Shown: piece by piece, positions 17,350 to 61,739 of the stretch
Layout of the letters: the number at the start of each line of letters is the position of its first letter
How positions within the stretch are numbered: position 1 is the stretch's first letter
Source of the DNA: an uncultured Verrucomicrobiae bacterium
GTDB lineage: Bacteria > Verrucomicrobiota > Verrucomicrobiia > Limisphaerales > Palsa-1400
Assembly: GCA_963764165.1 (NCBI GenBank)
Contig: CAVXRD010000002.1
Span: 512,001 to 576,000 of the forward strand
Reading direction: 5' to 3'
Length of the DNA: 64,000 bases
Notes under the pieces: model-generated
What the model saw: the letters and a program-made list of their open reading frames with translations, nothing else
Told to the model about the DNA's origin: nothing
Database searches by the model: none
Translations under genes and position numbers: made by a program

Positions 17350-17442
17350 CACAGGTAATTTATTTACCCATGGAGATTTGTAAAGACACATTTTGTGCAT
17401 TTCTCGATTTCATGCGCAAATATTTTCGAAAAATCGTGCCAA

Positions 17443-17487
17443 AAACACTCCGGTAGGTTTTCCATCCCGCGCCATCCGTGCCAAAGT
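17443..17487 (+). promoter_or_regulatory. Bipartite dyad plus extended -10-like motif, copy 1
   Basis: AAACACT-CCGGT-AGGTTTTC-N16-TGCCAAAGT; same spacing at 48075 and 61618. Confidence 0.6.
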
Positions 17488-17553
17488 GCGTTCATGTGTA
17501 TATATGATAGGACTGCGAGGAAAGGACTGAGCAGGAACAATTCATTTGGATTT

Positions 17554-17789: not shown

Positions 17790-17829
17790 TTGCACGCTAT
17801 TGCACCCTATTGCACCCTATTGCACCCTT
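17790..17829. repeat. 10-bp tandem repeat (TTGCACCCTA x4, imperfect)
   Basis: TTGCACGCTA TTGCACCCTA TTGCACCCTA TTGCACCCTT. Confidence 0.9.
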
Positions 17830-30458: not shown

Positions 30459-30543
30459 GCCCGCGTGGCGGAATTGGCAGACGCGCTAGATTCAGGTTCT
30501 AGTGAGTAACATCGTACAGGTTCAAGTCCTGTCGCGGGCACCA
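30459..30543 (+). tRNA. tRNA-Leu(CAG)
   Basis: GCCCGCG/CGCGGGC acceptor stem, CTAGA-TTCAGGT-TCTAG anticodon arm, long variable arm, GGTTCAAGT T-loop, CCA. Confidence 0.97.
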
Positions 30544-37884: not shown

Positions 37885-38748
37885 TCAACCCGTCGGGATG
37901 CGATTGGCCAGATCAACAAAAAATTCTTTTGACCAAAGCTCAACCTCGCGAGGGTCTTGCAGAAAAACCCGCACCTCATTGGCAGCCTCCCGGAAATTGA
38001 TTTCACCAAAGCGCTTTACGAGCAGAGCTTTTAAACTCTCCGTCGCAAGGGGTTCTCCCTTCCAGTATTTGGACTGGCGCATTCGGGCATCGAGGTGCTT
38101 CAAGTTGGGCACAACTTTTCGCCCCACATACCAGACGAAGTCATAATAATCCCGGCCCTTTACGCGGTTCTTCCACCCCCGGCACAAAACGGCGTGAAGC
38201 TTGCCAGCGAAAAGACTGCCCAGATCATAGAGCCTGACCTGGTAGGGAGTCGGCAAGATCTGGGAACGAAACTCGGTGCTGGCATCCGGCGGTGGCTGGA
38301 GATCCATCTCCAGCTTGATTCTAATTTTCTGATCCGAGTGCATTCTTCGCGCAAGCTCAGGAGGCGCGCCAATATAAAGCAGATTAAGCTGTGTGCTTCC
38401 TTTTAGAAATGCTGATTCAATCCCGGTTCGATTCCCCGATGAGCGACTCTCTGCTTCGAAAGTAAAACCCCAAGATTTCAGTTCGGTGCCAATGTCCGAT
38501 AGATACCGGTCAAGTCTAACGTCGGCGTTTGCTTCGAGCAGCGAAAAATCGAGATCCTCCGAGAATCGCCGCAGTCCGTGAAAGATTCTCAAAGCAGTGC
38601 CTCCATAAAAAGCGGCATTGGCGAAAAACCCCCTTCGCCACAGGCCGAGCAACGCCAGTTCTTGGACCACTTCACGCGCCGCATTCTGGTAATCAAGCTG
38701 AGTCTTTGGCTGGTAGGCAGCCAGCATGTCCCTTAGAGCGGAGTTCAT
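37885..38748 (-). CDS. abiEii: AbiEii-family nucleotidyltransferase toxin (type IV TA)
   Basis: FYGGTALRIFHGLRRFSEDLDF, KLHA and KGRDYYD motifs. Confidence 0.9.
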   Translation of the reverse strand: MNSALRDMLAAYQPKTQLDYQNAAREVVQELALLGLWRRGFFANAAFYGGTALRIFHGLRRFSEDLDFSLLEANADVRLDRYLSDIGTELKSWGFTFEAESRSSGNRTGIESAFLKGSTQLNLLYIGAPPELARRMHSDQKIRIKLEMDLQPPPDASTEFRSQILPTPYQVRLYDLGSLFAGKLHAVLCRGWKNRVKGRDYYDFVWYVGRKVVPNLKHLDARMRQSKYWKGEPLATESLKALLVKRFGEINFREAANEVRVFLQDPREVELWSKEFFVDLANRIPTG

Positions 38749-39371
38749 TTAACGAAACCTTTCTTCAACGCAAATTGCCGGAGCAACCGAACAGCGGGGC
38801 TGCCATAGTTGACTGCACAGGATGCAAGTTCGGCCTTGTCCAAGCTCGTTCCAAGATCAATTCTCATTCCTTCGAGCCAGCGGGCTACGTCAGGCAGTGA
38901 TCGGAAGCCCGCCTCGAGAGCAATACGGTCACAAAGACCCTTTGTGGGGCTGGCTATGAGAAAAGGCAGATCCAAGTTCGTCACGCGCCGGATTCCCACA
39001 GGATAAACCTCTTCCGGCACATGCCGGTAATGATAGCGTCCAAAGGCGTTCTCGAAACTGGCCGCACGCTTGGTGGTCGCTGAGATGCATTCAATAACGG
39101 CTTCCGGTATCATTCCGTGCCATGCAAGCGCCGTTTCAAAGCTGACGTAGGAAGGACCATAGATGGAACCAGCCAAGCAACGAGCATCAATGTTCGGCCG
39201 ATTCGCATAAAGTCCGCGACGCAGTTGAATCAGCTCGCCGGAGCTTAACATTCTCGCAATTTTCCCACGAACATCGGAAACATCGTGCAGCAAATGTCGC
39301 ATGCGAATCGTGTCCAAAAGCAAATCTTGGCCAACGTCGGACGGGTGCTCAATTGTCTGATTAGGATGCAT
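38745..39371 (-). CDS. abiEi: AbiEi-family antitoxin/transcriptional regulator
   Basis: LIQLRRGLY, PSYVSFETALAWHGMIPE and ASPTKGLCD motifs; 4-nt overlap with the toxin. Confidence 0.85.
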   Translation of the reverse strand: MHPNQTIEHPSDVGQDLLLDTIRMRHLLHDVSDVRGKIARMLSSGELIQLRRGLYANRPNIDARCLAGSIYGPSYVSFETALAWHGMIPEAVIECISATTKRAASFENAFGRYHYRHVPEEVYPVGIRRVTNLDLPFLIASPTKGLCDRIALEAGFRSLPDVARWLEGMRIDLGTSLDKAELASCAVNYGSPAVRLLRQFALKKGFVK

Positions 39372-42889: not shown

Positions 42890-43064
42890 CGCTGCATTTA
42901 GCCAACCCCGGCCCGGAAAGCCAATACGATTTTGCAGCCCATTCGAAGGACTACGGCGACCCGCTGCCGGTTTGCCCCGCGCCCGTTGACACCCCAAAGA
43001 GCGTCAATCATTCAGAGCAGAAGCCCAGTGTTCCAGCGCGCAGCGATAGCGATAGCCAGCCCAG

Positions 43065-43216
43065 CAATCCTGAAAGGATTGAATCATTCAGCCCACGGTT
43101 GGCCGATTCAGAGAGGCCTGCCCTGGGTAACGGCGTTCGAAGCCCACAACCCTGAAAGGGTTGAATCAGTCCCACAGATACCGTTCGTCCAACGCGATTT
43201 CGTGCCGCTGCAACAC
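43065..43216 (-). mobile_element. Remnant of an IS200/RAYT-like (Y1) element: two hairpin repeats plus transposase C-terminus
   Basis: CAATCCTGAAAGGATTGAATC (43065) and CAACCCTGAAAGGGTTGAATC (43147); minus strand 43216-43166 reads VLQRHEIALDERYLWD*. Confidence 0.6.
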
Positions 43217-43420
43217 CGTGACCCCTTTGACGTCGACGGCGCCACTCGCACCTTGCCAAGCGTGTCAAGGCGCTGGGCAATAAAGCCCGCAAAGGGTTCA
43301 ACGATATGGCCGAAGATCGAAGATCGACATTCGGCGGGCGCCGCGGATTCGACACCCCCGGGCGTTTTGGGACGCTTTGGCGCCGCATCTGTCGCGCATC
43401 GAGATGGACGACACGCAATG

Positions 43421-47250: not shown

Positions 47251-47700
47251 CTAACTGGGGGCAGCGAGTCGGTTTCGCGCTCGCTTAATCGTTGCGTTAT
47301 ATCTGGAGAGAATAACAGTCTGCGCAATCCGCACGGGGTTCTTAAGCGAGTGCTCCCATATTCGGATAACGCGCCAGCCGCGTTTCCGGAGAATTTTGCC
47401 CACCGCCACATCGCGCGCTTTATTCCTGCGAATTTTTGGAAGCCAATACTCCTTTCGGCTCCCAGGCATCCGGCCATGCCAGCGGCAGCCGTGCCAGAAA
47501 CAGCCATCCACGAAGACCGCCATGCGCTCTTTCGGGAATACAAAATCGGGCCGTCCGGGAACACGCTGATTCCGGCGCCATCCCGTAATGCCGCTGGCTC
47601 TGAAAATGGCGGCCAGCTTCACTTCCGTGCTTTTGTTGTTGGTCGACCTAATGGCCGCCATCACGCGCGACCGCTTCTCCACTGTGAACACATCTGGCAC
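47251..47700 (-). CDS. vsr: Very short patch repair endonuclease
   Basis: DVFTVEKRSRVMAAIRS, GRPDFVF, FVDGCFWHGC, RNKARD and GWRVIRIWEH motifs. Confidence 0.95.
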   Translation of the reverse strand: MPDVFTVEKRSRVMAAIRSTNNKSTEVKLAAIFRASGITGWRRNQRVPGRPDFVFPKERMAVFVDGCFWHGCRWHGRMPGSRKEYWLPKIRRNKARDVAVGKILRKRGWRVIRIWEHSLKNPVRIAQTVILSRYNATIKRARNRLAAPS

Positions 47701-48074
47701 GGAAAGATGTTTACACCACCTCCCGGCCGCATAAAACCGGAAAGAACCCCAATTATTGGCAAGGGCACAAATCAGATTTTGCAAACTGATTTTCGCCCCT
47801 CCATGCCGTCGGCTCAGATTTTGTTTGCTTGGATTTGATTCGCTCCTGCGACAAATGCTCCTCAACAAAGGACTCCCCGGAAGGTGGTTAATCAACTTTC
47901 AAACCAGGCCAGACAGCGCTGGCACACCGTGGCATCGGCTCGGCGCAGCGAGCCGGCCCGGCCAAAAGCTGCTGTCCGCCCTGTTGGCGAATTTGGGCGG
48001 GGCAGGCTCATGTTTTTGAGCCATGCCCCACTAAATCGTGCAAAAATGCATTTTTTTGTGAAAAAAGCGGCCAA

Positions 48075-48119
48075 AAAACCTCTGGTAGGTTTTCTGTTTG
48101 CCTCCGCGCCTGCCAAAGT
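48075..48119 (+). promoter_or_regulatory. Bipartite dyad plus extended -10-like motif, copy 2, upstream of the phage-like operon
   Basis: AAAACCT-CTGGT-AGGTTTTC-N16-TGCCAAAGT with AT-rich upstream tract. Confidence 0.65.
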
Positions 48120-48196
48120 CGTGGCGCATGAGACGACTTAACAGTGTGTCCGGCGCCAAAACGCCCGACTTAGCCAGCCAATAAAATCACCATTCT

Positions 48197-48403
48197 ATGA
48201 AGAAAAAATTCGCGTCTATCCTCGCTGCGGCGGCGTTCGCCACCGCGGGCTGCAAAAATCCACTCGCCATTTCGGGCGACTACGCCACGCCAAAACAAAC
48301 GATCAGCGGCGGCGTCACAACAACCACCAACAGCGTCATTGTGACGGGTGGATACTCAACAACCAATCAAACCATCGGCGGTTCCGTCACCGTTGGAAAA
48401 TAG
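48197..48403 (+). CDS. Small lipoprotein
   Basis: MKKK, hydrophobic stretch, TAGC lipobox; internal repeat (GxY.T..QTI.G.VT x2). Confidence 0.75.
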   Translation: MKKKFASILAAAAFATAGCKNPLAISGDYATPKQTISGGVTTTTNSVIVTGGYSTTNQTIGGSVTVGK

Positions 48404-48412
48404 GAAAACGAT

Positions 48413-48778
48413 ATGCGAAAACTATTATTCCAAGCCTTGTTGCCAAGTTCCTTGTTTCTCCAGGCTTGCGCTTGTCCGCACCGCAAGGCGGTTTCGTCGC
48501 ATGAGGTCGAGACCTACGCCGGGCGCGTGGACGGATTGGTCCGCCGCGAAACCTGGCGCGATTCCGAACAGGGGGGCGGGCAATTCGTCTTCACCGATCC
48601 ATCGGCGGCGCAACTGTTCGCCTCGCACACCAACCAATCGGCCCTCGGCGGCGGCTCCGTCTTCAGCGCGGGCGCGGTCGCCGTCGCGGTCGACACCAAC
48701 ACGCCGGCCATCATCGGCGCAGCGGGAACGGCAGTCGGAAATGTCATCGGCGCGGCGGCCAAGACCTCTGTCAAATAG
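48413..48778 (+). CDS. Small putative lipoprotein
   Basis: MRK, hydrophobic stretch, LQAC lipobox-like; C-terminal Gly/Ala-rich helix (IIGAAGTAVGNVIGAAA). Confidence 0.65.
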   Translation: MRKLLFQALLPSSLFLQACACPHRKAVSSHEVETYAGRVDGLVRRETWRDSEQGGGQFVFTDPSAAQLFASHTNQSALGGGSVFSAGAVAVAVDTNTPAIIGAAGTAVGNVIGAAAKTSVK

Positions 48779-48782
48779 ATCC

Positions 48783-49592
48783 ATGAATACCCCATCCCCC
48801 AATCAATTCGATCCCCACAACGCCCGCGCGCTGTGTCTCGCCAGCGCTGAGGCTTATAATGCTGACGCGACTCCTCCCGAATCTTCCCTGCGATGCGAGG
48901 CCGCGGACACTCATGTTTGCATCCAGCGCCGCACCTCTTTCTCCGAGAGCGACGGCGGCGAAATGACCATCGCGTTTCGCGGCACCGCCGATTGGCGCAA
49001 CGCCCTGACCGATATGGATTGCAAGCTCATCCACGCCGGCGGCTATCGCGTCCACCGCGGTTTCCACCAGGCCGTCGAAGCCATCGACGCCAGCCTCACG
49101 GCTGCGCTGGGCGACGTTTCGGGCATGCGCCTGTGGGTCACCGGGCATTCCCTCGGCGGCGCGCTGGCGGAATTGTGGGCGCTGCGCGCGCTCGAGCGCG
49201 GCCATGACATAGCTGGAGTTTACACCTTCGGCCAGCCGCGCGTGGGCGATGCCGCGTTCGCCGCCTATTACGATTCACTGCTCAAGCCGCGCACATTCCG
49301 CGTCGTTCACGGCGACGATGTCGTCCCGCGAATTCCGTGGCTCCTCGCCAAGTATCGCCATGCCGGGAACGAAATCTTTTACCCCCGCGCCTCTTCGGCG
49401 GCATGGATCGCAAATTGTTCGTGGTGGCGGAAATTAATGTTTGACGTTGCGGCGGTCACCGGGGACTTGCGGGCAGGCCGCATCGGAGCATTGGACAGCC
49501 ATCACATCAGCAACTATCTCGCGCTCTTTTTCGAAACAGCGCCGTCCCGAACCTCAAACCGCTCCAACTCAAATTCCCATGATATTCTCTGA
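48783..49592 (+). CDS. Class 3 lipase family protein
   Basis: IAFRGT, VHRGF, TGHSLGGA, YTFGQPRVG, DVVPRIP and C-terminal His motifs. Confidence 0.92.
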   Translation: MNTPSPNQFDPHNARALCLASAEAYNADATPPESSLRCEAADTHVCIQRRTSFSESDGGEMTIAFRGTADWRNALTDMDCKLIHAGGYRVHRGFHQAVEAIDASLTAALGDVSGMRLWVTGHSLGGALAELWALRALERGHDIAGVYTFGQPRVGDAAFAAYYDSLLKPRTFRVVHGDDVVPRIPWLLAKYRHAGNEIFYPRASSAAWIANCSWWRKLMFDVAAVTGDLRAGRIGALDSHHISNYLALFFETAPSRTSNRSNSNSHDIL

Positions 49593-50004
49593 CATCTCCA
49601 ACGCTGAACTCGGCGCGTGGGTTTACGCCCTCGCGACCGTCATCCAAATCGTGAGCACCATCGCGATTCTCATCACCATTAATTCCAAGCAAAAACGGGA
49701 AATCAGTTTTGCGGGGGAAACAGTGGAGCGGAAGGAATTCGACAAGCATGTGGCCGAGAATTCCCTCGTTCACCAGCAGCTCTTTGCCAAAATCGGCGGC
49801 GTCGAGCGTGGGCTGGAATCGCGCCTCGCTTCCCGCATGGACAAATTCGAAACCGAAAGCGAGGACTCCCGCCGTTTGTTTCATCGCGACATCAGCGCCA
49901 TCGGCAACGACGTCGCCGCCCTCAAGAAGGAAGCCGAATTGGCCAACCAGCGTTCGCTCCAGATGGACGCGAAGATCGACCGCCTCATTGAACGCCCGAA
50001 ATAG
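49579..50004 (+). CDS. N-terminal TM plus coiled-coil phage-type protein (position of Mu gp25)
   Basis: Single TM followed by a heptad-rich region ending KIDRLIER; synteny. Confidence 0.6.
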   Translation: MIFSDISNAELGAWVYALATVIQIVSTIAILITINSKQKREISFAGETVERKEFDKHVAENSLVHQQLFAKIGGVERGLESRLASRMDKFETESEDSRRLFHRDISAIGNDVAALKKEAELANQRSLQMDAKIDRLIERPK

Positions 50005-50016
50005 AAGAATCCCACC

Positions 50017-50289
50017 ATGATACCCACCGACAAAATCGAACTCTTCGACAACGCCCTGCTGAAAATTCTCGAGGCCAACAATACGCCTTGGGGTTTGCAA
50101 TCGGCGGCCTTGTGCATGTTTGCCCGCGAATTTGGTTTCGCGCCCTCCGCGCCGGAAGCCGTCCCGCGCCTTGAGTATTTGACAGCCAAAGGAATGGCGC
50201 AGGAAGTTTCCAAGCAATTGAGCAAGGCCAATCGCGCCTGGAAAATCACGGACGCCGGACGCCGCTACCTCGACGAACAAGGACTCTGA
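50017..50289 (+). CDS. Small winged-helix protein (Mu gp26-like)
   Basis: 90 aa; LEYLTAKG...WKITDAGRRYL winged-helix end; synteny before terminase genes. Confidence 0.6.
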   Translation: MIPTDKIELFDNALLKILEANNTPWGLQSAALCMFAREFGFAPSAPEAVPRLEYLTAKGMAQEVSKQLSKANRAWKITDAGRRYLDEQGL

Positions 50290-50294
50290 ACCAT

Positions 50295-50771
50295 ATGAGA
50301 ACCAACGACGAACTATCAGCCCTCAACGCCCTGCCCGCGCCGCAGCAACAGGAAATTCTCGAATTTCTGGAGGGTGGCGAGAATAAACCGGGGCGCTCCG
50401 CCGGCGAATGCGCCGAATGGCTTGCGGAGCGCGGCATCGCTGCAAACGTCGAAGCCATCCAGCGTTGGCAAACGCGGCAACTGCATCGCATTCGCATGGA
50501 ATGGTGCGAATCGATGACCGCCATCGCAATTGAAGACGCCCGCCGCCCGAACCACGTTTATTCAGACGAGGAGCTGCTGAGCATCGGCATCCGCCTTTTC
50601 AACGCGCTCGTCGTAAAAACGTGCCGGCACGAAAACCTCACACGAAATCAAACCGCGGAAATCCGGCGGCAAGCAATGATCCGCCTCGAGCACGAACTCG
50701 TCACGGAACTGGAGAAGTTCGCCGCAGCCAATTCTCATTCATCCCCTCCCTCCCATCCCTCGCATCTATGA
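50295..50771 (+). CDS. Putative small terminase/HTH protein (Mu gp27/DUF3486-like)
   Basis: LNALP..QQ.I...L...ECAEWLAERGI....AIQRW HTH pattern; ATGA-coupled to TerL. Confidence 0.6.
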   Translation: MRTNDELSALNALPAPQQQEILEFLEGGENKPGRSAGECAEWLAERGIAANVEAIQRWQTRQLHRIRMEWCESMTAIAIEDARRPNHVYSDEELLSIGIRLFNALVVKTCRHENLTRNQTAEIRRQAMIRLEHELVTELEKFAAANSHSSPPSHPSHL

Positions 50772-52279
50772 ACGATTCACCACCGCCACCCGCCCCCAAT
50801 ATTCTGGATCGCACTTTTGCCGCCCCCGGAGCGGAGCTTCTGCCTTACCAAAAAGACTGGGCCAATGACTCATCGCGATGGAAATTTGGCCTGATGTCCC
50901 GCCAAGTCGGAAAGGACTTTGCCGCGGGCTTCGAAGGCGTCCGCGATTGCGTGGAGGCCGAGCTGGCCGGAAGAAAAGTGACATGGCTGATCGCCGCGCC
51001 CTCGGAACGGCAATCGCTCGAATCGTTGAACAAATGGAAAAATTGGGCCGAATCCTTTCACCTCGCGCTGGAAGGCGAAGAAATCGAACGTGCCGATGGC
51101 TCAGAGAGCCTGCTCTCGTCCGCCAGCATCACGTTTCCCAACGGCAGCCGCGTCATCGCCGTCCCCGGCCAGCCGGACACCGTGCGGGGATTCAGCGCCA
51201 ACATATTATTGACAGAATTCGCTTTCTTCGAGCGGCCTGAAGCCACCTGGCGGGCCATCCTTCCGAGCATCACCAATTCCAAAAGTGGCGGCGTCAAGAA
51301 AGTCCGCCTCATCACCACTCCCAACGGACTCGGCAACAAGGCGCATGACCTGTGGATCAAAAATTATCGCCCGCCCGGAAATTCTGCAACGGAATCGCGC
51401 GGTCAAACTGCTGCGCCGCCGGGCGCGAGTTCCCTTCTCCCATCGCCGATGTGGAAGTGCCATTTTGTTGACATACACAAGGCCGTCGCGCAGGGATTGC
51501 GGGCGGATATTGAGGAATTGAGGGCGGCGCTGGACGACCCGGAAGGCTGGTCGCAGGAATTTGAGTGCCAGTTCCTCGACGTCCAATCCGTCCTGCTCCC
51601 CTACGAACTCATCGCGACTTGCGAAAGCGCGGAAGCCACCGTCACCGCGCCGTTGGACTTCTGGCAAGCCGCCGCCGGGAGCCCGCTCGCGATGGGAATT
51701 GATTTCGGCCGCCGGCGGGACTTGACCGTCGCGTGGACACTCGCGCGCGTGGGCGACGTCTGGCAGACAATTGAAGTCCTGGTGCTCGACCAAACTCCCA
51801 CCGATCAGCAGGTGGAGATTTTGCGCCCGCGCATCCGCCGTTGCGGGCGCGTTTGCGTGGATTACACCGGGCCGGGCGTGGGTTTTGGCGATTACCTGGT
51901 GAAGGAATTCCACGAATTCAACCCGGCCCAGCACACGTTCGGCAAAATCGAGCCATGCACCTTTTCGCAAAACCTGAAAGTCGACATCTTCAGCAAATTG
52001 CGCATGGCCTTCGAGCATCGGGAATTGCGCGTGCCCGTCAACCGGGACATCCGCGAAGATTTGCATTCCCTCAGCCGCGTGAGCAATCCCAACGGCCAAA
52101 TCACCTACCGCGCCTCGCACACCGCCGACGGCCACGCCGACCGCGCCACCGCGCTGGCCCTGGCCCTTCGCGCGACAGGCGGCGGCGTCGGACAATCCGC
52201 TGCCGAATCCATCCCCCGCCCTCCCAATCCGCGAGATCTGGCCATGGCATCGGGCAATCGCAGCCGGTGGACATTATGA
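50768..52279 (+). CDS. terL: Terminase large subunit (Mu gp28-like)
   Basis: LLPYQ, SRQVGKD, SERQS, PDTVRG, LTEFAF, TTPNG, QEFECQF; nuclease motifs GIDFGRRRD, VDYTGPG and HADRATALAL. Confidence 0.9.
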   Translation: MNDSPPPPAPNILDRTFAAPGAELLPYQKDWANDSSRWKFGLMSRQVGKDFAAGFEGVRDCVEAELAGRKVTWLIAAPSERQSLESLNKWKNWAESFHLALEGEEIERADGSESLLSSASITFPNGSRVIAVPGQPDTVRGFSANILLTEFAFFERPEATWRAILPSITNSKSGGVKKVRLITTPNGLGNKAHDLWIKNYRPPGNSATESRGQTAAPPGASSLLPSPMWKCHFVDIHKAVAQGLRADIEELRAALDDPEGWSQEFECQFLDVQSVLLPYELIATCESAEATVTAPLDFWQAAAGSPLAMGIDFGRRRDLTVAWTLARVGDVWQTIEVLVLDQTPTDQQVEILRPRIRRCGRVCVDYTGPGVGFGDYLVKEFHEFNPAQHTFGKIEPCTFSQNLKVDIFSKLRMAFEHRELRVPVNRDIREDLHSLSRVSNPNGQITYRASHTADGHADRATALALALRATGGGVGQSAAESIPRPPNPRDLAMASGNRSRWTL

Positions 52280-52284
52280 ATGCC

Positions 52285-52629
52285 TCATCTGTTTTTGACG
52301 CCCCGTTTTCGGGCTGTCGCCGAGGCTTTGCGGCCAAGAATTGCCCCAACGTCTCGCGCGCCGTGCAAAACCCGGACAATCTCGACAGGGCGGCGCTTGC
52401 GCCTGTAAATAATCAAGTAACGCCTTACAAGCCAGAACTGCAGAGGTTCGTCCGCCAGGTCACCCCGCGAATGGCCAATCCCGGGCGTCGTGGCCAACTT
52501 GTTAAAAGCCTCGAAGATATCATCCCGCACGCGGTCAGCGGCATCAGGATTCTGCAATTCGATGGCATAATAATCCCAGATCTCGTCCAAATCGCCGCTT
52601 GCGGCGGGCGAAATAAGGAAGTCACTCAT
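52285..52629 (-). CDS. parE: ParE/RelE-family toxin
   Basis: SPAASGDLDEIWDY, PGIGHSR, YLIIYR and IVRVLHGARD motifs. Confidence 0.92.
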   Translation of the reverse strand: MSDFLISPAASGDLDEIWDYYAIELQNPDAADRVRDDIFEAFNKLATTPGIGHSRGDLADEPLQFWLVRRYLIIYRRKRRPVEIVRVLHGARDVGAILGRKASATARKRGVKNR

Positions 52630-52892
52630 CGCTTGCGCGCGCGAAATTGGGCGCTCCGTTTCTTCATGCGCGCGTAAACCTGCTCACCACTGATGCCCTC
52701 ACCACGATCTAGTTCATTGAGGCCGGCCCGGATCTTTTTTCGCGCTTCATCCAAGTGCAGGGCTCGCAGATGATCTTGGTCCTCCAAGAGCCGCAGCCCT
52801 TCACGGATGACTTCGCTGGCAGATTGGTAGAGGCCGCTTTGCACCTTCCGGTTTACAAGCTGCTCCAATTCGGGAGTTAACGAAACATTCAT
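52626..52892 (-). CDS. parD: ParD-family (CC2985-like) antitoxin
   Basis: MNVSLTPELE...SGLYQSASEVIREGLRLL; 4-nt overlap with the toxin. Confidence 0.92.
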   Translation of the reverse strand: MNVSLTPELEQLVNRKVQSGLYQSASEVIREGLRLLEDQDHLRALHLDEARKKIRAGLNELDRGEGISGEQVYARMKKRSAQFRARKR

Positions 52893-53200: not shown

Positions 53201-53353
53201 ATGTGGACCTTGCTCAAAGAGTTCCTTAAGTTTTGCCGCCAGGAGAAAAAATGGTGGCTGGTGCCGCTTATTGTCCTGCTGCTGGTGCTCGGCGCGATCA
53301 TCGTCTTCACCGCCACTTCCGGCATCGCCTGGGCGCTCTATCCTTTCATGTAA
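53201..53353 (+). CDS. DUF5989/SxtK-like small membrane protein (50 aa, absent from ORF track)
   Basis: MWTLLKEFLKFCRQEKKWWLVPLIVLLLVLG...WALYPFM; KKWWLxP motif next to a carbamoyltransferase. Confidence 0.85.
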   Translation: MWTLLKEFLKFCRQEKKWWLVPLIVLLLVLGAIIVFTATSGIAWALYPFM

Positions 53354-53357
53354 TGTT

Positions 53358-55172
53358 GTGAAATGGATCTTAGGCATTTCCGCCTATTACCACGATTCCG
53401 CGGCCGCCCTGCTGCGCGATGGCCAGATTTTCGCCGCCGCCCAGGAGGAACGCTTCACGCGAATCAAAAACGAGCCGGATTTTCCCAAGCTCGCCATTGA
53501 GTTCTGCCTGCGGCGCGCGGGGTTGAAGCCGTCGGAATTGGACTGCGTTGTGTTTTACGACAAGCCCGTTTTGAAATTCGCGCGCCTGCTGGAAACGTAT
53601 CTCGCGGTCGCGCCCGGCGGCTGGCGGACGTTTCCAGAAGTAGTGTCCAATTGGCTCGGCGGAAAACTGGATTTGCGAAAAACCATTCGACAGGAATTGC
53701 CCGGCTTGCGAGCCGATTGCCCGATTCTTTTCACCGCGCATCACCAGGCCCACGCGGCCAGCGCGTTCTATCCTTCGCCATTCGAGACGGCGGCCATTCT
53801 GACCATCGACGCGGTCGGCGAATGGGCCACGACGACCATCGGGCGCGGGCGCGGCGATGACATCGAACTTCTGGAGGAAATTCGTTTTCCGCATTCGCTG
53901 GGCATGTTGTATTCGGCCTTCACGGACTACTGCGGGTTCCGCATCAATTCCGGCGAATACAAATTGATGGGCCTCGCGCCTTATGGCGAACCACTCTATG
54001 CCGACGCGATTTTTCGCGAATTGATCGATCTCAAGCCCGACGGATCGTTTTGGCTGAATCTCGATTATTTCAACTTCCTCCGCGGCACGACGATGACGAA
54101 CGCCCGGTTTCACGATTTGTTCGGAGGACCGCCGCGCAAACATGACGAACCGCTCCAGCAACGCCACATGGACGTGGCGCGCTCAATCCAGGCCGTAACA
54201 GAGGAAGTAGTCTTGCGCCTGGCCCGGCACGCGAAGGAATTGACGGGCGAAAAGAATCTCTGCCTCGCGGGCGGCGTCGCGCTCAATTGCGTGGCCAACG
54301 GGCGCCTGCTGCGGGAGCGTGTATTTGACAACATTTGGATCCAACCGGCGGCCAGCGATGCGGGCGGAGCGCTGGGCGCGGCCCTGGCGGCGTGGCACAC
54401 GCGGCGCGACAAGTCCGTTCCGCGCCCTCCTAAAACCGATGCCATGCAAGGCTCCTTGCTCGGCCCGGATTTTTCCGATGCGGAAATCGAAGCGACCCTG
54501 CGCAGCCACGACGCGAAGTTCCGACAGCTCGCCACCAGCGAGATGCTGGATGCCGTCGTGAAATTGCTGCAAGATGGCAAAGTCATCGGCTGGTTCCAGG
54601 GGCGGATGGAATTTGGCCCGCGCGCCTTGGGCAATCGCTCAATAATCGGAGATGCCCGTTCTCCACGAATGCAATCGGTGATGAACTTGAAGGTGAAGTT
54701 CCGTGAGTCGTTCCGCCCATTCGCGCCAATCGTCCGCCGCGAGCGGCTCGGCGATTATTTCGATTTGACGGAAGATTCACCCTACATGCTGCTGGTCGCT
54801 CCGATTCTGCCGAGCTTGCGGCTGCCCAATCCCGCTGGCATGCGCGGCTTGGAATTATTGAAACAGACGCGCAGCACGCTCCCCGCCATCACGCACGTTG
54901 ATTATTCCGCGCGAATCCAAACGGTGAAGCGCGAGGACAACGCGCTGCTGTATGAATTGCTTTCGCGGTTCGAGCAAGCGACTGGCTGCGGCGTGCTTGT
55001 CAATACTTCGTTTAACGTGCGCGGCGAGCCGGTCGTATGCTCGCCCGAGGATGCCTACCGCTGTTTCGTCCACACGGAAATGGATTATCTCGTGATGGGA
55101 AACTTTCTGCTGGATCGATTGGAGCAGCCAGCCCGCAACGTCGAGCGCCGCGTCGCGCCGCAACTGGACTAA
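53358..55172 (+). CDS. Carbamoyltransferase (NodU/CmcH/SxtI family)
   Basis: LGISAYYHDSAA, QEERFTR, HHQAHAAS, GEYKLMGLAPYG, GGVALNC, EFGPRALGNRS and NTSFN motifs. Confidence 0.95.
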   Translation: MKWILGISAYYHDSAAALLRDGQIFAAAQEERFTRIKNEPDFPKLAIEFCLRRAGLKPSELDCVVFYDKPVLKFARLLETYLAVAPGGWRTFPEVVSNWLGGKLDLRKTIRQELPGLRADCPILFTAHHQAHAASAFYPSPFETAAILTIDAVGEWATTTIGRGRGDDIELLEEIRFPHSLGMLYSAFTDYCGFRINSGEYKLMGLAPYGEPLYADAIFRELIDLKPDGSFWLNLDYFNFLRGTTMTNARFHDLFGGPPRKHDEPLQQRHMDVARSIQAVTEEVVLRLARHAKELTGEKNLCLAGGVALNCVANGRLLRERVFDNIWIQPAASDAGGALGAALAAWHTRRDKSVPRPPKTDAMQGSLLGPDFSDAEIEATLRSHDAKFRQLATSEMLDAVVKLLQDGKVIGWFQGRMEFGPRALGNRSIIGDARSPRMQSVMNLKVKFRESFRPFAPIVRRERLGDYFDLTEDSPYMLLVAPILPSLRLPNPAGMRGLELLKQTRSTLPAITHVDYSARIQTVKREDNALLYELLSRFEQATGCGVLVNTSFNVRGEPVVCSPEDAYRCFVHTEMDYLVMGNFLLDRLEQPARNVERRVAPQLD

Positions 55173-55181
55173 AACAAGAAC

Positions 55182-55589
55182 GTGAAAAGCCAGCCAAACA
55201 TAAAGGAAGATCCAAAGGAATGGCGCAAAGCCGGTCTGATGAGCGCGGGAGGATTGGCCGTCGGCATGAGCATCCTGCGGTGGCGTCACGTGCTGCCGGT
55301 GAGGGCGTGGGAATGCATTCTGGCCGCGCTCGTGCTGGTCGCGCTGGCGGCCATCGCGAAGCCGCGCCTGTTCCGCGGATTGTATCGCTTCACGACGCAA
55401 CTGAGTTTCGTGCTTGGAAAAGTCATCGGGCGAATTCTGCTGGCGGCATTCTTCTTCCTCGTGATCGTGCCGCTCGCCTTGGTTTGGCGGGTGATGGGAA
55501 AAGACCCGCTGAAATTGCGCCGGCCCACCAATGCGCAAACATATTGGACAAAGGCGCGACCGGCGTCTTCACTGGAGAATCTGTTTTGA
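55182..55589 (+). CDS. SxtJ-family membrane protein
   Basis: TM segments, GKDPLKL...TYW...LENLF ending; directly after the carbamoyltransferase. Confidence 0.8.
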   Translation: MKSQPNIKEDPKEWRKAGLMSAGGLAVGMSILRWRHVLPVRAWECILAALVLVALAAIAKPRLFRGLYRFTTQLSFVLGKVIGRILLAAFFFLVIVPLALVWRVMGKDPLKLRRPTNAQTYWTKARPASSLENLF

Positions 55590-59344: not shown

Positions 59345-59438
59345 GAGAACATTGGAACTGCACGCGGGGAAAGTGCAGCCGCTCTTTGGAAAAACGGGTT
59401 GCCGCGGCCGTTCAAATAACAACCGCGGACTACAATTT

Positions 59439-59615
59439 ACCCTGCCATGCTCGTGATTAAAAACAAAGTCCTTGAACCGTAAATAGTCAGCAAGGAGCCC
59501 TAACCTCGGTAGTGGCCGACAGGCCTTGACTGGAAGTCGTAAGCAATCGACTCGGCTCCAAATGTTCATACCAGCAGTTCAAAGGAACTGTTTATACACG
59601 GCATTACGGTGGGGT
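59439..59615 (+). ncRNA. ssrS: 6S RNA (probable)
   Basis: About 180-nt rod: ACCCTGCC/GGTGGGGT closing stem, ATGC-CGTG/CACG-GCAT, TCCTTGAAC/GTTCAAAGGA, central A-rich bubble, GGAGCC/GGCTCC inner stem, 3' T-run. Confidence 0.8.
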
Positions 59616-59720
59616 TTTTTTATTGGCGGGAACGCCTCCCTTGGCGGCTAATGGTCCTTGTCCTCATCCCGGATTTCAAATTGGGTTGACCTCGAAGCCC
59701 GCGGCGGTATCGTGCGCTTC

Positions 59721-61552: not shown

Positions 61553-61617
61553 GCGACCCGTTCCGTTGGCGTTATTCGTTTCAATTTTTCCCAATATTTC
61601 TTCAGAAATCGCGCTGA

Positions 61618-61662
61618 AAAACCTCTGGCAGGTTTTCTGATTTCATTTCCATGTGCCACACT
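61618..61662 (+). promoter_or_regulatory. Bipartite dyad plus extended -10-like motif, copy 3
   Basis: AAAACCT-CTGGC-AGGTTTTC-N16-TGCCACACT. Confidence 0.6.
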
Positions 61663-61717: not shown

Positions 61718-61739
61718 AATTGTCACGCAATTGTCACGA
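61718..61739 (+). promoter_or_regulatory. Pho box upstream of pstS
   Basis: Two 11-bp direct repeats AATTGTCACGC/AATTGTCACGA matching the TGTCA core of PhoB boxes. Confidence 0.75.

Follow-up and report, generated by a model that had tools for sequence, protein, structure and literature searches.

The window, that is the whole stretch of 64,000 nucleotides that was analysed, carries an operon whose last gene encodes the large subunit of a terminase (TerL), and this operon is headed by a promoter-like element. Two further copies of the element are dispersed in the same window. The features considered here are:

17430..17487, plus strand: dispersed promoter-like copy lacking an ORF, with an ATG at 17494
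17790..17829, plus strand: four-unit 10-bp phased array of the TTGCACCCTA type that follows the 17443 copy and precedes a glycosyltransferase gene
48063..48119, plus strand: promoter-like element of the terminase operon, with the dyad core at 48079-48089, TG at 48111-48112 and the -10-like CAAAGT at 48114-48119
48197..48403, plus strand: gene for a 68-aa lipoprotein-like product, the first of the late operon, 57% to the prophage homolog and kept in relatives
48413..48778, plus strand: gene for a lipoprotein-like product of about 110-120 aa, with a putative lysis role suggested by position alone
48783..49592, plus strand: Lipase_3 family gene with counterparts in the prophage and in free phages, absent from the operon of the relative G001
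49579..50004, plus strand: membrane/coiled-coil gene (dN/dS 0.09-0.24), presumably at the position of Mu gp25
50017..50289, plus strand: 90-aa winged-helix gene (phrog_2440, E 9e-6), which we take to occupy the position of Mu gp26
50295..50771, plus strand: gp27/small-terminase-like gene of the operon, fast-evolving (dN/dS about 0.45) and without the C-terminal tail that most relatives and the dispersed copies keep
50768..52279, plus strand: TerL, the last operon gene, with no portal after it
61606..61662, plus strand: dispersed copy lacking an ORF, flanked by a DUF72 gene and a pstS-like gene
61720..61737, plus strand: TTGTCAC direct repeat with 11-bp spacing

The copy at 48075 is best read as an old, orthologous one that heads the terminase operon, and the array at 17790..17829 is a candidate packaging-site-like array. 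The TTGTCAC repeat, which we take to resemble a Pho box, may be either a short module array or the Pho box of the phosphate operon.

The terminase operon is flanked on the minus strand by a gene for a Vsr endonuclease (47251-47895) and by a ParE-type toxin-antitoxin pair (52285-52892), and an AbiE-type pair lies further upstream (37885-39371, minus strand). A cluster with a small ORF, a carbamoyltransferase and an SxtJ-family membrane gene is located at 53201-55589 (plus strand). Between lpxC and the gene for an Ig-domain surface protein (about 42950-43250) we observed a REP-like palindromic region, and within it, at about 42952-43068, the C-terminal fragment of a gp27-like gene of a second family. 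An Rfam scan of the window detected a 6S RNA (59436-59619, plus strand) and tRNAs at 1742-1813 and 30459-30540, and it detected no family at the three motif sites.

According to the original prediction the intergenic sites at 17443-17487, 48075-48119 and 61618-61662 share a dyad followed by a C, a spacer of 16 nt and TGCCA(A/C)A(G/C)T. All of these parts are present at the three sites, and CATG follows 5, 7 and 9 nt downstream. The window contains three matches compared with 0.12 expected on a shuffled background, and none of 100 shuffles produced at least three. A scan of the whole genome (G000; 7.0 Mb, five contigs, 4,814 genes by our own gene caller) with a position weight matrix revealed 65 copies with scores of 29 to 128 bits, and the reversed genome yielded 0 copies, the best score being -14. 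The expectation that further copies would keep the spacing was borne out as well: the TG and the -10 box stand at the exact distance in 55 of the 65 copies, are off by one in four and are unmatched in six. Based on our own gene calls for G000, all 65 copies are intergenic.

The most conserved columns among the 65 copies are the A and the T of the -10 box (91% each) and the TG (82 and 91%), so a -10 element is recognisable from column conservation, and a typical -35 is absent. The first ATG or GTG begins 6 nt past the -10 in 38 copies and 5-8 nt past it in 50. If the purine about 6-7 nt past the -10, within this first ATG or GTG, is taken as +1, the centre of the dyad is located near -42. The element is present in the form originally described, but that description was too short, since a AAAATCGTGCC box and T-tracts are also found upstream; homology among the copies usually extends 50-400 nt to either side. 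Likewise, the dyad A4CCT/AGGT4 is present at the sites, but its long form is not the part that is conserved across relatives. The conserved core consists there of CCnnC-N-GTnGG, 21 nt and TG-n4-A-n-T. Left-hand T-runs replace the A-runs in two genera, and the A4/T4 arms are absent from the variants of G006 and G008.

Two additional structures were noticed around the motif. One is a distinct 30-bp inverted-repeat module, which frequently adjoins it at -45 to -66 and is also found alone upstream of genes; of its 55 matches in the genome, 24 are near the motif (for example L016, L017 and L022). Short inverted repeats (GAG..CTC or GAAC..GTTC) lie just past the presumed start at 48120-48160 of the window and at the equivalent places in G001, G003 and G004; they occur at operon copies and at copies leading gp27-like genes and could form a hairpin in the 5' RNA.

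The different sequence and equal length of the three spacers had been taken as a sign of selection on a promoter rather than of recent duplication. For the scattered copies this argument does not hold, because their spacers fall into duplicated subfamilies. The nearest-neighbour identity of the spacers is 13.3 of 16 positions, compared with 10.9 in column shuffles (maximum 11.3 in 200 shuffles). The spacer at 17443 is identical to that of two further copies, and the spacer at 61618 matches other copies at 15 of 16 positions. Only the spacer of the terminase operon copy at 48075 is unique among the three window sites (10 of 16).

Portal, capsid, tail and DUF3486-like genes had been predicted downstream of other copies, and such genes were found. 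In addition to the 48075 copy ahead of the TerL operon, one copy on contig C1 heads an operon with portal, protease, capsid-like, gp36 and tail genes, and two copies head gp27/small-terminase-like genes (phrog_426). The phage gene set is divided into four chromosomal modules in G000: lysis-like genes with the terminase; the portal-capsid-tail operon; a repressor 1 with a MuB-like stub, accompanied in some genomes by Gam; and a repressor 2 with a gene for a tandem HTH_17 protein. The label of the capsid gene is based on its position, on phage homologs and on an atlas cluster. Tape-measure-like, gpF-like and gpG-like genes were not found in the head-tail operon. Outside the prophage, G000 has no homolog of the last phage tail gene, which is tape-measure-like by position and not by a database match, or of the gpF-like and gpG-like genes, and the operon ends of G001, G004 and G008 gave no tape-measure-like gene either. 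G006 retains a 127-aa stub. MuA and a full MuB were not found in G000 outside the separate prophage, and the early modules of relatives contain the MuB-like stub only.

Single-copy portal orthologs at 65-76% are present in 11 of 120 relatives. In 10 of these 11 (portal at least 65%) a variant of the motif precedes the portal gene, as read by eye and with a regular expression; the exception is the prophage-like G014. The ten relatives with both a motif-headed portal and the HTH_17 gene belong to four genera. All seven of them in which DNA upstream of the terminase operon is available carry a variant there too (G001, G003, G004, G006, G008, G019 and G025, the last with a deviating -10), and three genomes of another genus have related dyads ahead of stand-alone terminase operons. 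Synteny of the head-tail operon holds in every relative that was read. The orthologs of TerL are on a different contig than the portal or at a great distance from it, except in G014; none was found in G011, and in G017 there is a contig-end piece only. Because the motif is kept ahead of both operons in the relatives, common control of the scattered phage genes is supported.

In G014 (L141) the genes appear to form a contiguous prophage in decay. Its two late operons have a palindromic upstream element in common, which differs from the motif and takes its place. G006 carries three extra copies of TerL outside the operon (L138, L139 and L137), one directly behind the motif and one with boxes of the repressor 1 type upstream.

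In six pairwise comparisons the dN/dS values of the portal, protease, capsid, tail tube and TerL genes were 0.05-0.28. The dS of the structural genes is similar to that of the host gene ilvE but near saturation. Trees of the portal, the HTH_17 protein and repressor 2 recover the genera, and the 11 host portals form one clade (support 99/98) apart from those of phages. Frameshifts affect the capsid gene of G004 and G019, and the portal of G022 contains a stop, which may reflect either decay or assembly errors. As judged from these comparisons, both operons are vertically inherited under purifying selection, lack a transposase and are in this sense GTA-like.

G000 also contains a complete-looking Mu-like transposable prophage with a head module of the HK97 type (contig C4, about 317000-352000; L070, L240) and a ribbon-helix-helix-like repressor pair. 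Its late operon is headed by one copy of the motif with a perfect dyad and with the 21-nt gap and the -10 of the portal promoter. The tail genes of the prophage are 60-86% identical to the distal genes of the domesticated operon, which suggests recent exchange. Relatives of the capsid at 61-64% were found on seven IMG/VR contigs, and in five of six mapped IMG/VR contigs the lipase and TerL genes are contiguous with portal and capsid genes. A family of ORFs of 60-70 aa is represented before the late promoter of the prophage (L070:7249-7461) and by duplicated stand-alone copies in G011 (L307 and L308). A 71-aa ORF before this promoter was considered as the activator and rejected, as it has no other copy in G000 and occurs in only one of 60 relatives.

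The Mor/C family, whose members activate the corresponding promoters of Mu, was not found: PF08765 was detected in none of five genomes. Another candidate is encoded upstream of ilvE-mcsA-mcsB-clpC, where repressor 2 faces the stand-alone gene for the tandem HTH_17 protein (contig C1, 1228977-1229435). A Pfam search assigned this protein of 152 aa to HTH_17 (E 1e-9), as it did 13 of 16 aligned members, and the protein is homologous to the product of the first early gene of these prophages (E 1e-15). The predicted structure consists of two winged-helix-like units (pLDDT 89), and a Foldseek search with the model returned BldC and RdfS at a probability of 0.96-0.99 but with E above 0.05. Of 120 relatives, 10 have a close ortholog (39-54%), and these are the very ten that carry the motif; weaker orthologs were found in four genomes from the genus that has the related dyad. 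The gene adjoins repressor 2 in all ten and ilvE in seven. On this evidence we lean slightly towards this excisionase-type protein as the activator. The co-occurrence with the motif is among kin and may correspond to one inheritance event. Proteins of the BldC/Xis type recognise direct-repeat sites, unlike the dyad with 5-bp arms found here, and a literature look-up for a tandem winged-helix activator found none.

Other candidates were tried and set aside. Repressor 1, an XRE-type protein encoded near ftsZ, faces an 84-aa ORF, the MuB-like stub and Gam, and its orthologs (48-67%) are found in the same ten relatives. It is unlikely to bind the motif, because the divergent region has TGTTA-N5-TAACA boxes of its own and these operators differ from the motif. 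Among the tail operons examined, only those of the genus contain a sigma-region-4-like ORF of 94 aa; the distribution of Gam is patchy.

Most genes next to a copy in G000 are unrelated host genes at a distance of 200-900 nt, which by inspection we take to include gyrB, smc, dnaK, lepA and rpsL. The next gene is co-oriented with the copy in 64 of 65 cases compared with 56% expected (p 2e-15), and tandem gaps are divided 38:1. Since the motif varies by genome, a first strict pattern missed most relatives. With a general pattern we obtained 42, 39, 8, 5, 20, 79, 10 and 19 matches in eight of the 11 genomes with the phage set, and at most three in each of 50 other genomes; controls gave 0-3. In the remaining three, G011, G019 and G025, there were 1, 3 and 3 matches and thus no expansion, which counts against the explanation preferred below. 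In each genome the dispersed copies match the operon variant of that genome, and 78 copies of G008 are nearly identical.

We read 67 sites in eight relatives, among them 14 of 78 in G008, 14 of 20 in G006 and 17 of 36 in G001. Twenty-five were set aside, 17 because they head operons, TerL or gp27-like genes and eight because they gave no match. The 42 remaining host-adjacent sites show a weaker orientation bias than G000 (31 co-oriented, 31:11), and only two of them share a co-oriented next gene with a copy of G000. As so few sites are common and the positions are lineage-specific, the scattered copies do not constitute a conserved host regulon. Taken together, the layout of a Mu-type late promoter and the common control of scattered phage genes remain from the original interpretation, but the Mor/C activator and the regulon of host genes do not.

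Both motif-led gp27-like genes of G000 end in a 10-bp phased array directly past the stop. Arrays were detected downstream of 38 of the 65 copies, compared with 9 of 400 control gaps, and upstream of none. Of 35 full-length gp27-like genes, 16 have an array at the stop, compared with 6 of 300 control genes; the 35 genes come from several genomes, and two rows of this set represent one locus. In G000 and G001 the operon version of gp27 no longer has its C-terminal tail, and in G019 the gene is deleted; the dispersed copies of G000 and G001 keep the tail. The dispersed copies also keep a conserved N-terminal region matching phrog_426, and the operon copy is degenerate. Because arrays accompany 38 copies and two copies head gp27-like genes, most copies look like deleted units of promoter, small-terminase gene and array. 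We infer that a full unit comprises the promoter, a gp27-like gene and an array, with the copies lacking an ORF as its deletions, and such units are possibly packaging-start modules. In G000 gp27-like genes stand behind only 2 of the 65 copies, which counts against the preferred explanation. A tight link is opposed by the low share of gp27-like loci with the motif upstream (11 of 52), by a second gp27-like family in G000 that uses another promoter, by the 47 of 75 TTGCACCCTA arrays away from the motif and by G002. This last genome has six gp27-like matches and no portal, TerL or motif, so gp27-like units exist independently of this system.

This second family is represented by six loci in G000 (L071-L076) that are 88-95% identical, some of them broken or interrupted by an IS. 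For its promoter the genome has 13 promoter-like and 43 upstream-module matches. Upstream of these genes, on the other strand, lies a TTGCACCCTA array. By eye, a stretch resembling an IHF site was seen in upstream arrays.

These data allow several explanations. The operon copies could be late promoters and the scattered ones selfish non-autonomous repeats, similar to MITEs or REPINs or moved by a recombinase, which captured a promoter; the arrays would then be arm-type sites of a recombinase and not packaging sites. Copy numbers from 1-3 up to 79 between genomes, the near identity of the copies in G008 and the lineage-specific positions fit this reading, as do the copies among REP-like palindromes and other modules, the 47 of 75 TTGCACCCTA arrays that are not near the motif and the gp27-like genes of G002 in the absence of operons. 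However, MITEs and REPINs have fixed ends with terminal inverted repeats, whereas the homology boundaries among the copies are spread over hundreds of bases without such ends. The arrays at the 3' ends of gp27-like genes and the dispersed copies that follow the operon variant of their own genome also argue against it, and the orientation bias suggests that the promoter matters. We consider this explanation unlikely. Still less probable is a true regulon, in which the activator would turn on about 60 host genes that support particle production. The co-orientation in 64 of 65 cases is in its favour and is not tied to GC skew, with which 24 of 48 copies agree; this ratio also led us to reject a replichore effect. 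Many of the next genes are, by inspection, core genes. Yet the next genes are hardly ever shared with relatives and the bias is weaker there, most copies are separated from the gene by 200-900 nt that include arrays and T-tracts, and the spacers are duplicated.

A slowly decaying grounded prophage, or a set kept only for lysis or empty particles without DNA transfer, would leave the motif as a relic promoter. The missing tape-measure-like, gpF-like and gpG-like genes, the capsid frameshifts in two genomes and the failure to find the whole set in G002 point in this direction, but the low dN/dS of TerL and portal across four genera, the separate loci each with a promoter copy of its own and the synteny of the regulator module are opposed to it, and we find it very improbable. 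Finally, the motif could be the site of a host factor, for example a sigma-54 promoter read from the other strand, a structured RNA or a terminator. Boxes similar to TGGCACG were present on the reverse strand of 57 of the 65 copies, but a full -24/-12 match occurred in one copy only, which led us to discard the sigma-54 reading. Moreover, G006 and G008 have not kept the A4/T4 arms, no Rfam family was detected at the sites and only genomes that carry the phage set have the motif, so that a host-factor site is scarcely credible.

We regard it as likely that the motif is the activator-dependent late promoter of a split, domesticated Mu-like gene set, vertically inherited within a verrucomicrobial clade, and that most scattered copies are internally deleted amplified units. 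In the proposed mechanism, release of repressor 2 would let the tandem HTH_17 protein be made, which would bind the dyad centred near -42, stand in for a -35 box and switch on both operons together with the dispersed gp27-like genes. The dispersed gp27-like proteins would then recruit the single large terminase. These proteins might bind the arrays at the 3' ends of their own genes, an assumption with somewhat less than an even chance; if gp27-like proteins on arrays recruit TerL, host DNA would be packaged from many starting sites. It is similarly conceivable, with the balance a little on the negative side, that particles carry and deliver DNA. More speculative and rather doubtful is the full version, a Mu-derived GTA with its packaging specificity outside the operon, in which one activator would serve dozens of promoter/small-terminase/pac-like modules, starts upstream of core genes would be programmed and evolvable, and the modules would compete as selfish drivers.

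The late promoters of Mu have a -10, no -35 and a C/Mor dyad centred at -43.5, and Plys, PI, PP, Pmom and Pm resemble the motif in the -10, the lack of a typical -35, a dyad with arms of about 5 bp (near -43 in Mu and, with +1 placed as above, near -42 here) and the AT-rich upstream DNA (PMC2582627, PMC4390567). Mu also has one copy before lysis/terminase genes and one before head genes. In contrast to Mu, no Mor/C gene was found here, a tandem HTH_17 protein is the candidate activator, the genes are split between host loci and there are dozens of extra copies.

Judged by its sequence, the gene set is phage-derived, vertically inherited and under purifying selection, without replication or transposition genes of its own, and in this it fits the picture by which GTAs are recognised in genomes. 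RcGTA has a dedicated activator, GafA (PMC9638019), and FpGTA is a published split system with operons I and II (PMC12946183). Both are similar to the present system in being phage-derived, replication-less and multi-locus, with a dedicated activator candidate near the -35/-10. The present set differs in its Mu-like origin and its missing tape-measure-like gene. Small terminases contact TerL via the C-terminus, and those of known GTAs are without a DNA-binding domain (PMC11841831); compared with the latter, the dispersed gp27-like genes have retained a conserved N-terminal region and occur together with arrays. The pac site of P1 consists of hexamer repeats inside the pacA gene and is alike in that short repeated units are tied to a small-terminase gene (PMC10028697). 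Here, in contrast, dozens of copies with differing unit sequences are located at the 3' end of the gene and across the host chromosome. SaPI/PICI satellites use a TerS of their own to redirect the packaging of a helper. An extra small terminase could act similarly here, but integrase and replication genes are lacking and the helper would be a domesticated host system.

Literature searches on a verrucomicrobial Mu-like GTA, on DUF3486 and on programmed GTA packaging sites revealed no description of this system among the freely accessible papers listed. The system appears undescribed and is probably GTA-like. The results provide a wiring diagram, comprising repressors, a candidate activator, the promoter and two structural operons, for a possible GTA in Verrucomicrobia, and they propose a late-gene activator outside the Mor/C family for a group of Mu-like phages. 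The natural promoter variants across the genera would permit swaps of activators and promoters. The analysis also suggests a reason why orphan DUF3486/gp27 genes and 10-bp arrays are so numerous in these genomes. Should the arrays mark packaging starts, they would represent a non-random, site-programmed alternative to the known ways in which GTAs choose DNA, and a site-programmed, distributed packaging system would, if true, be new in kind.
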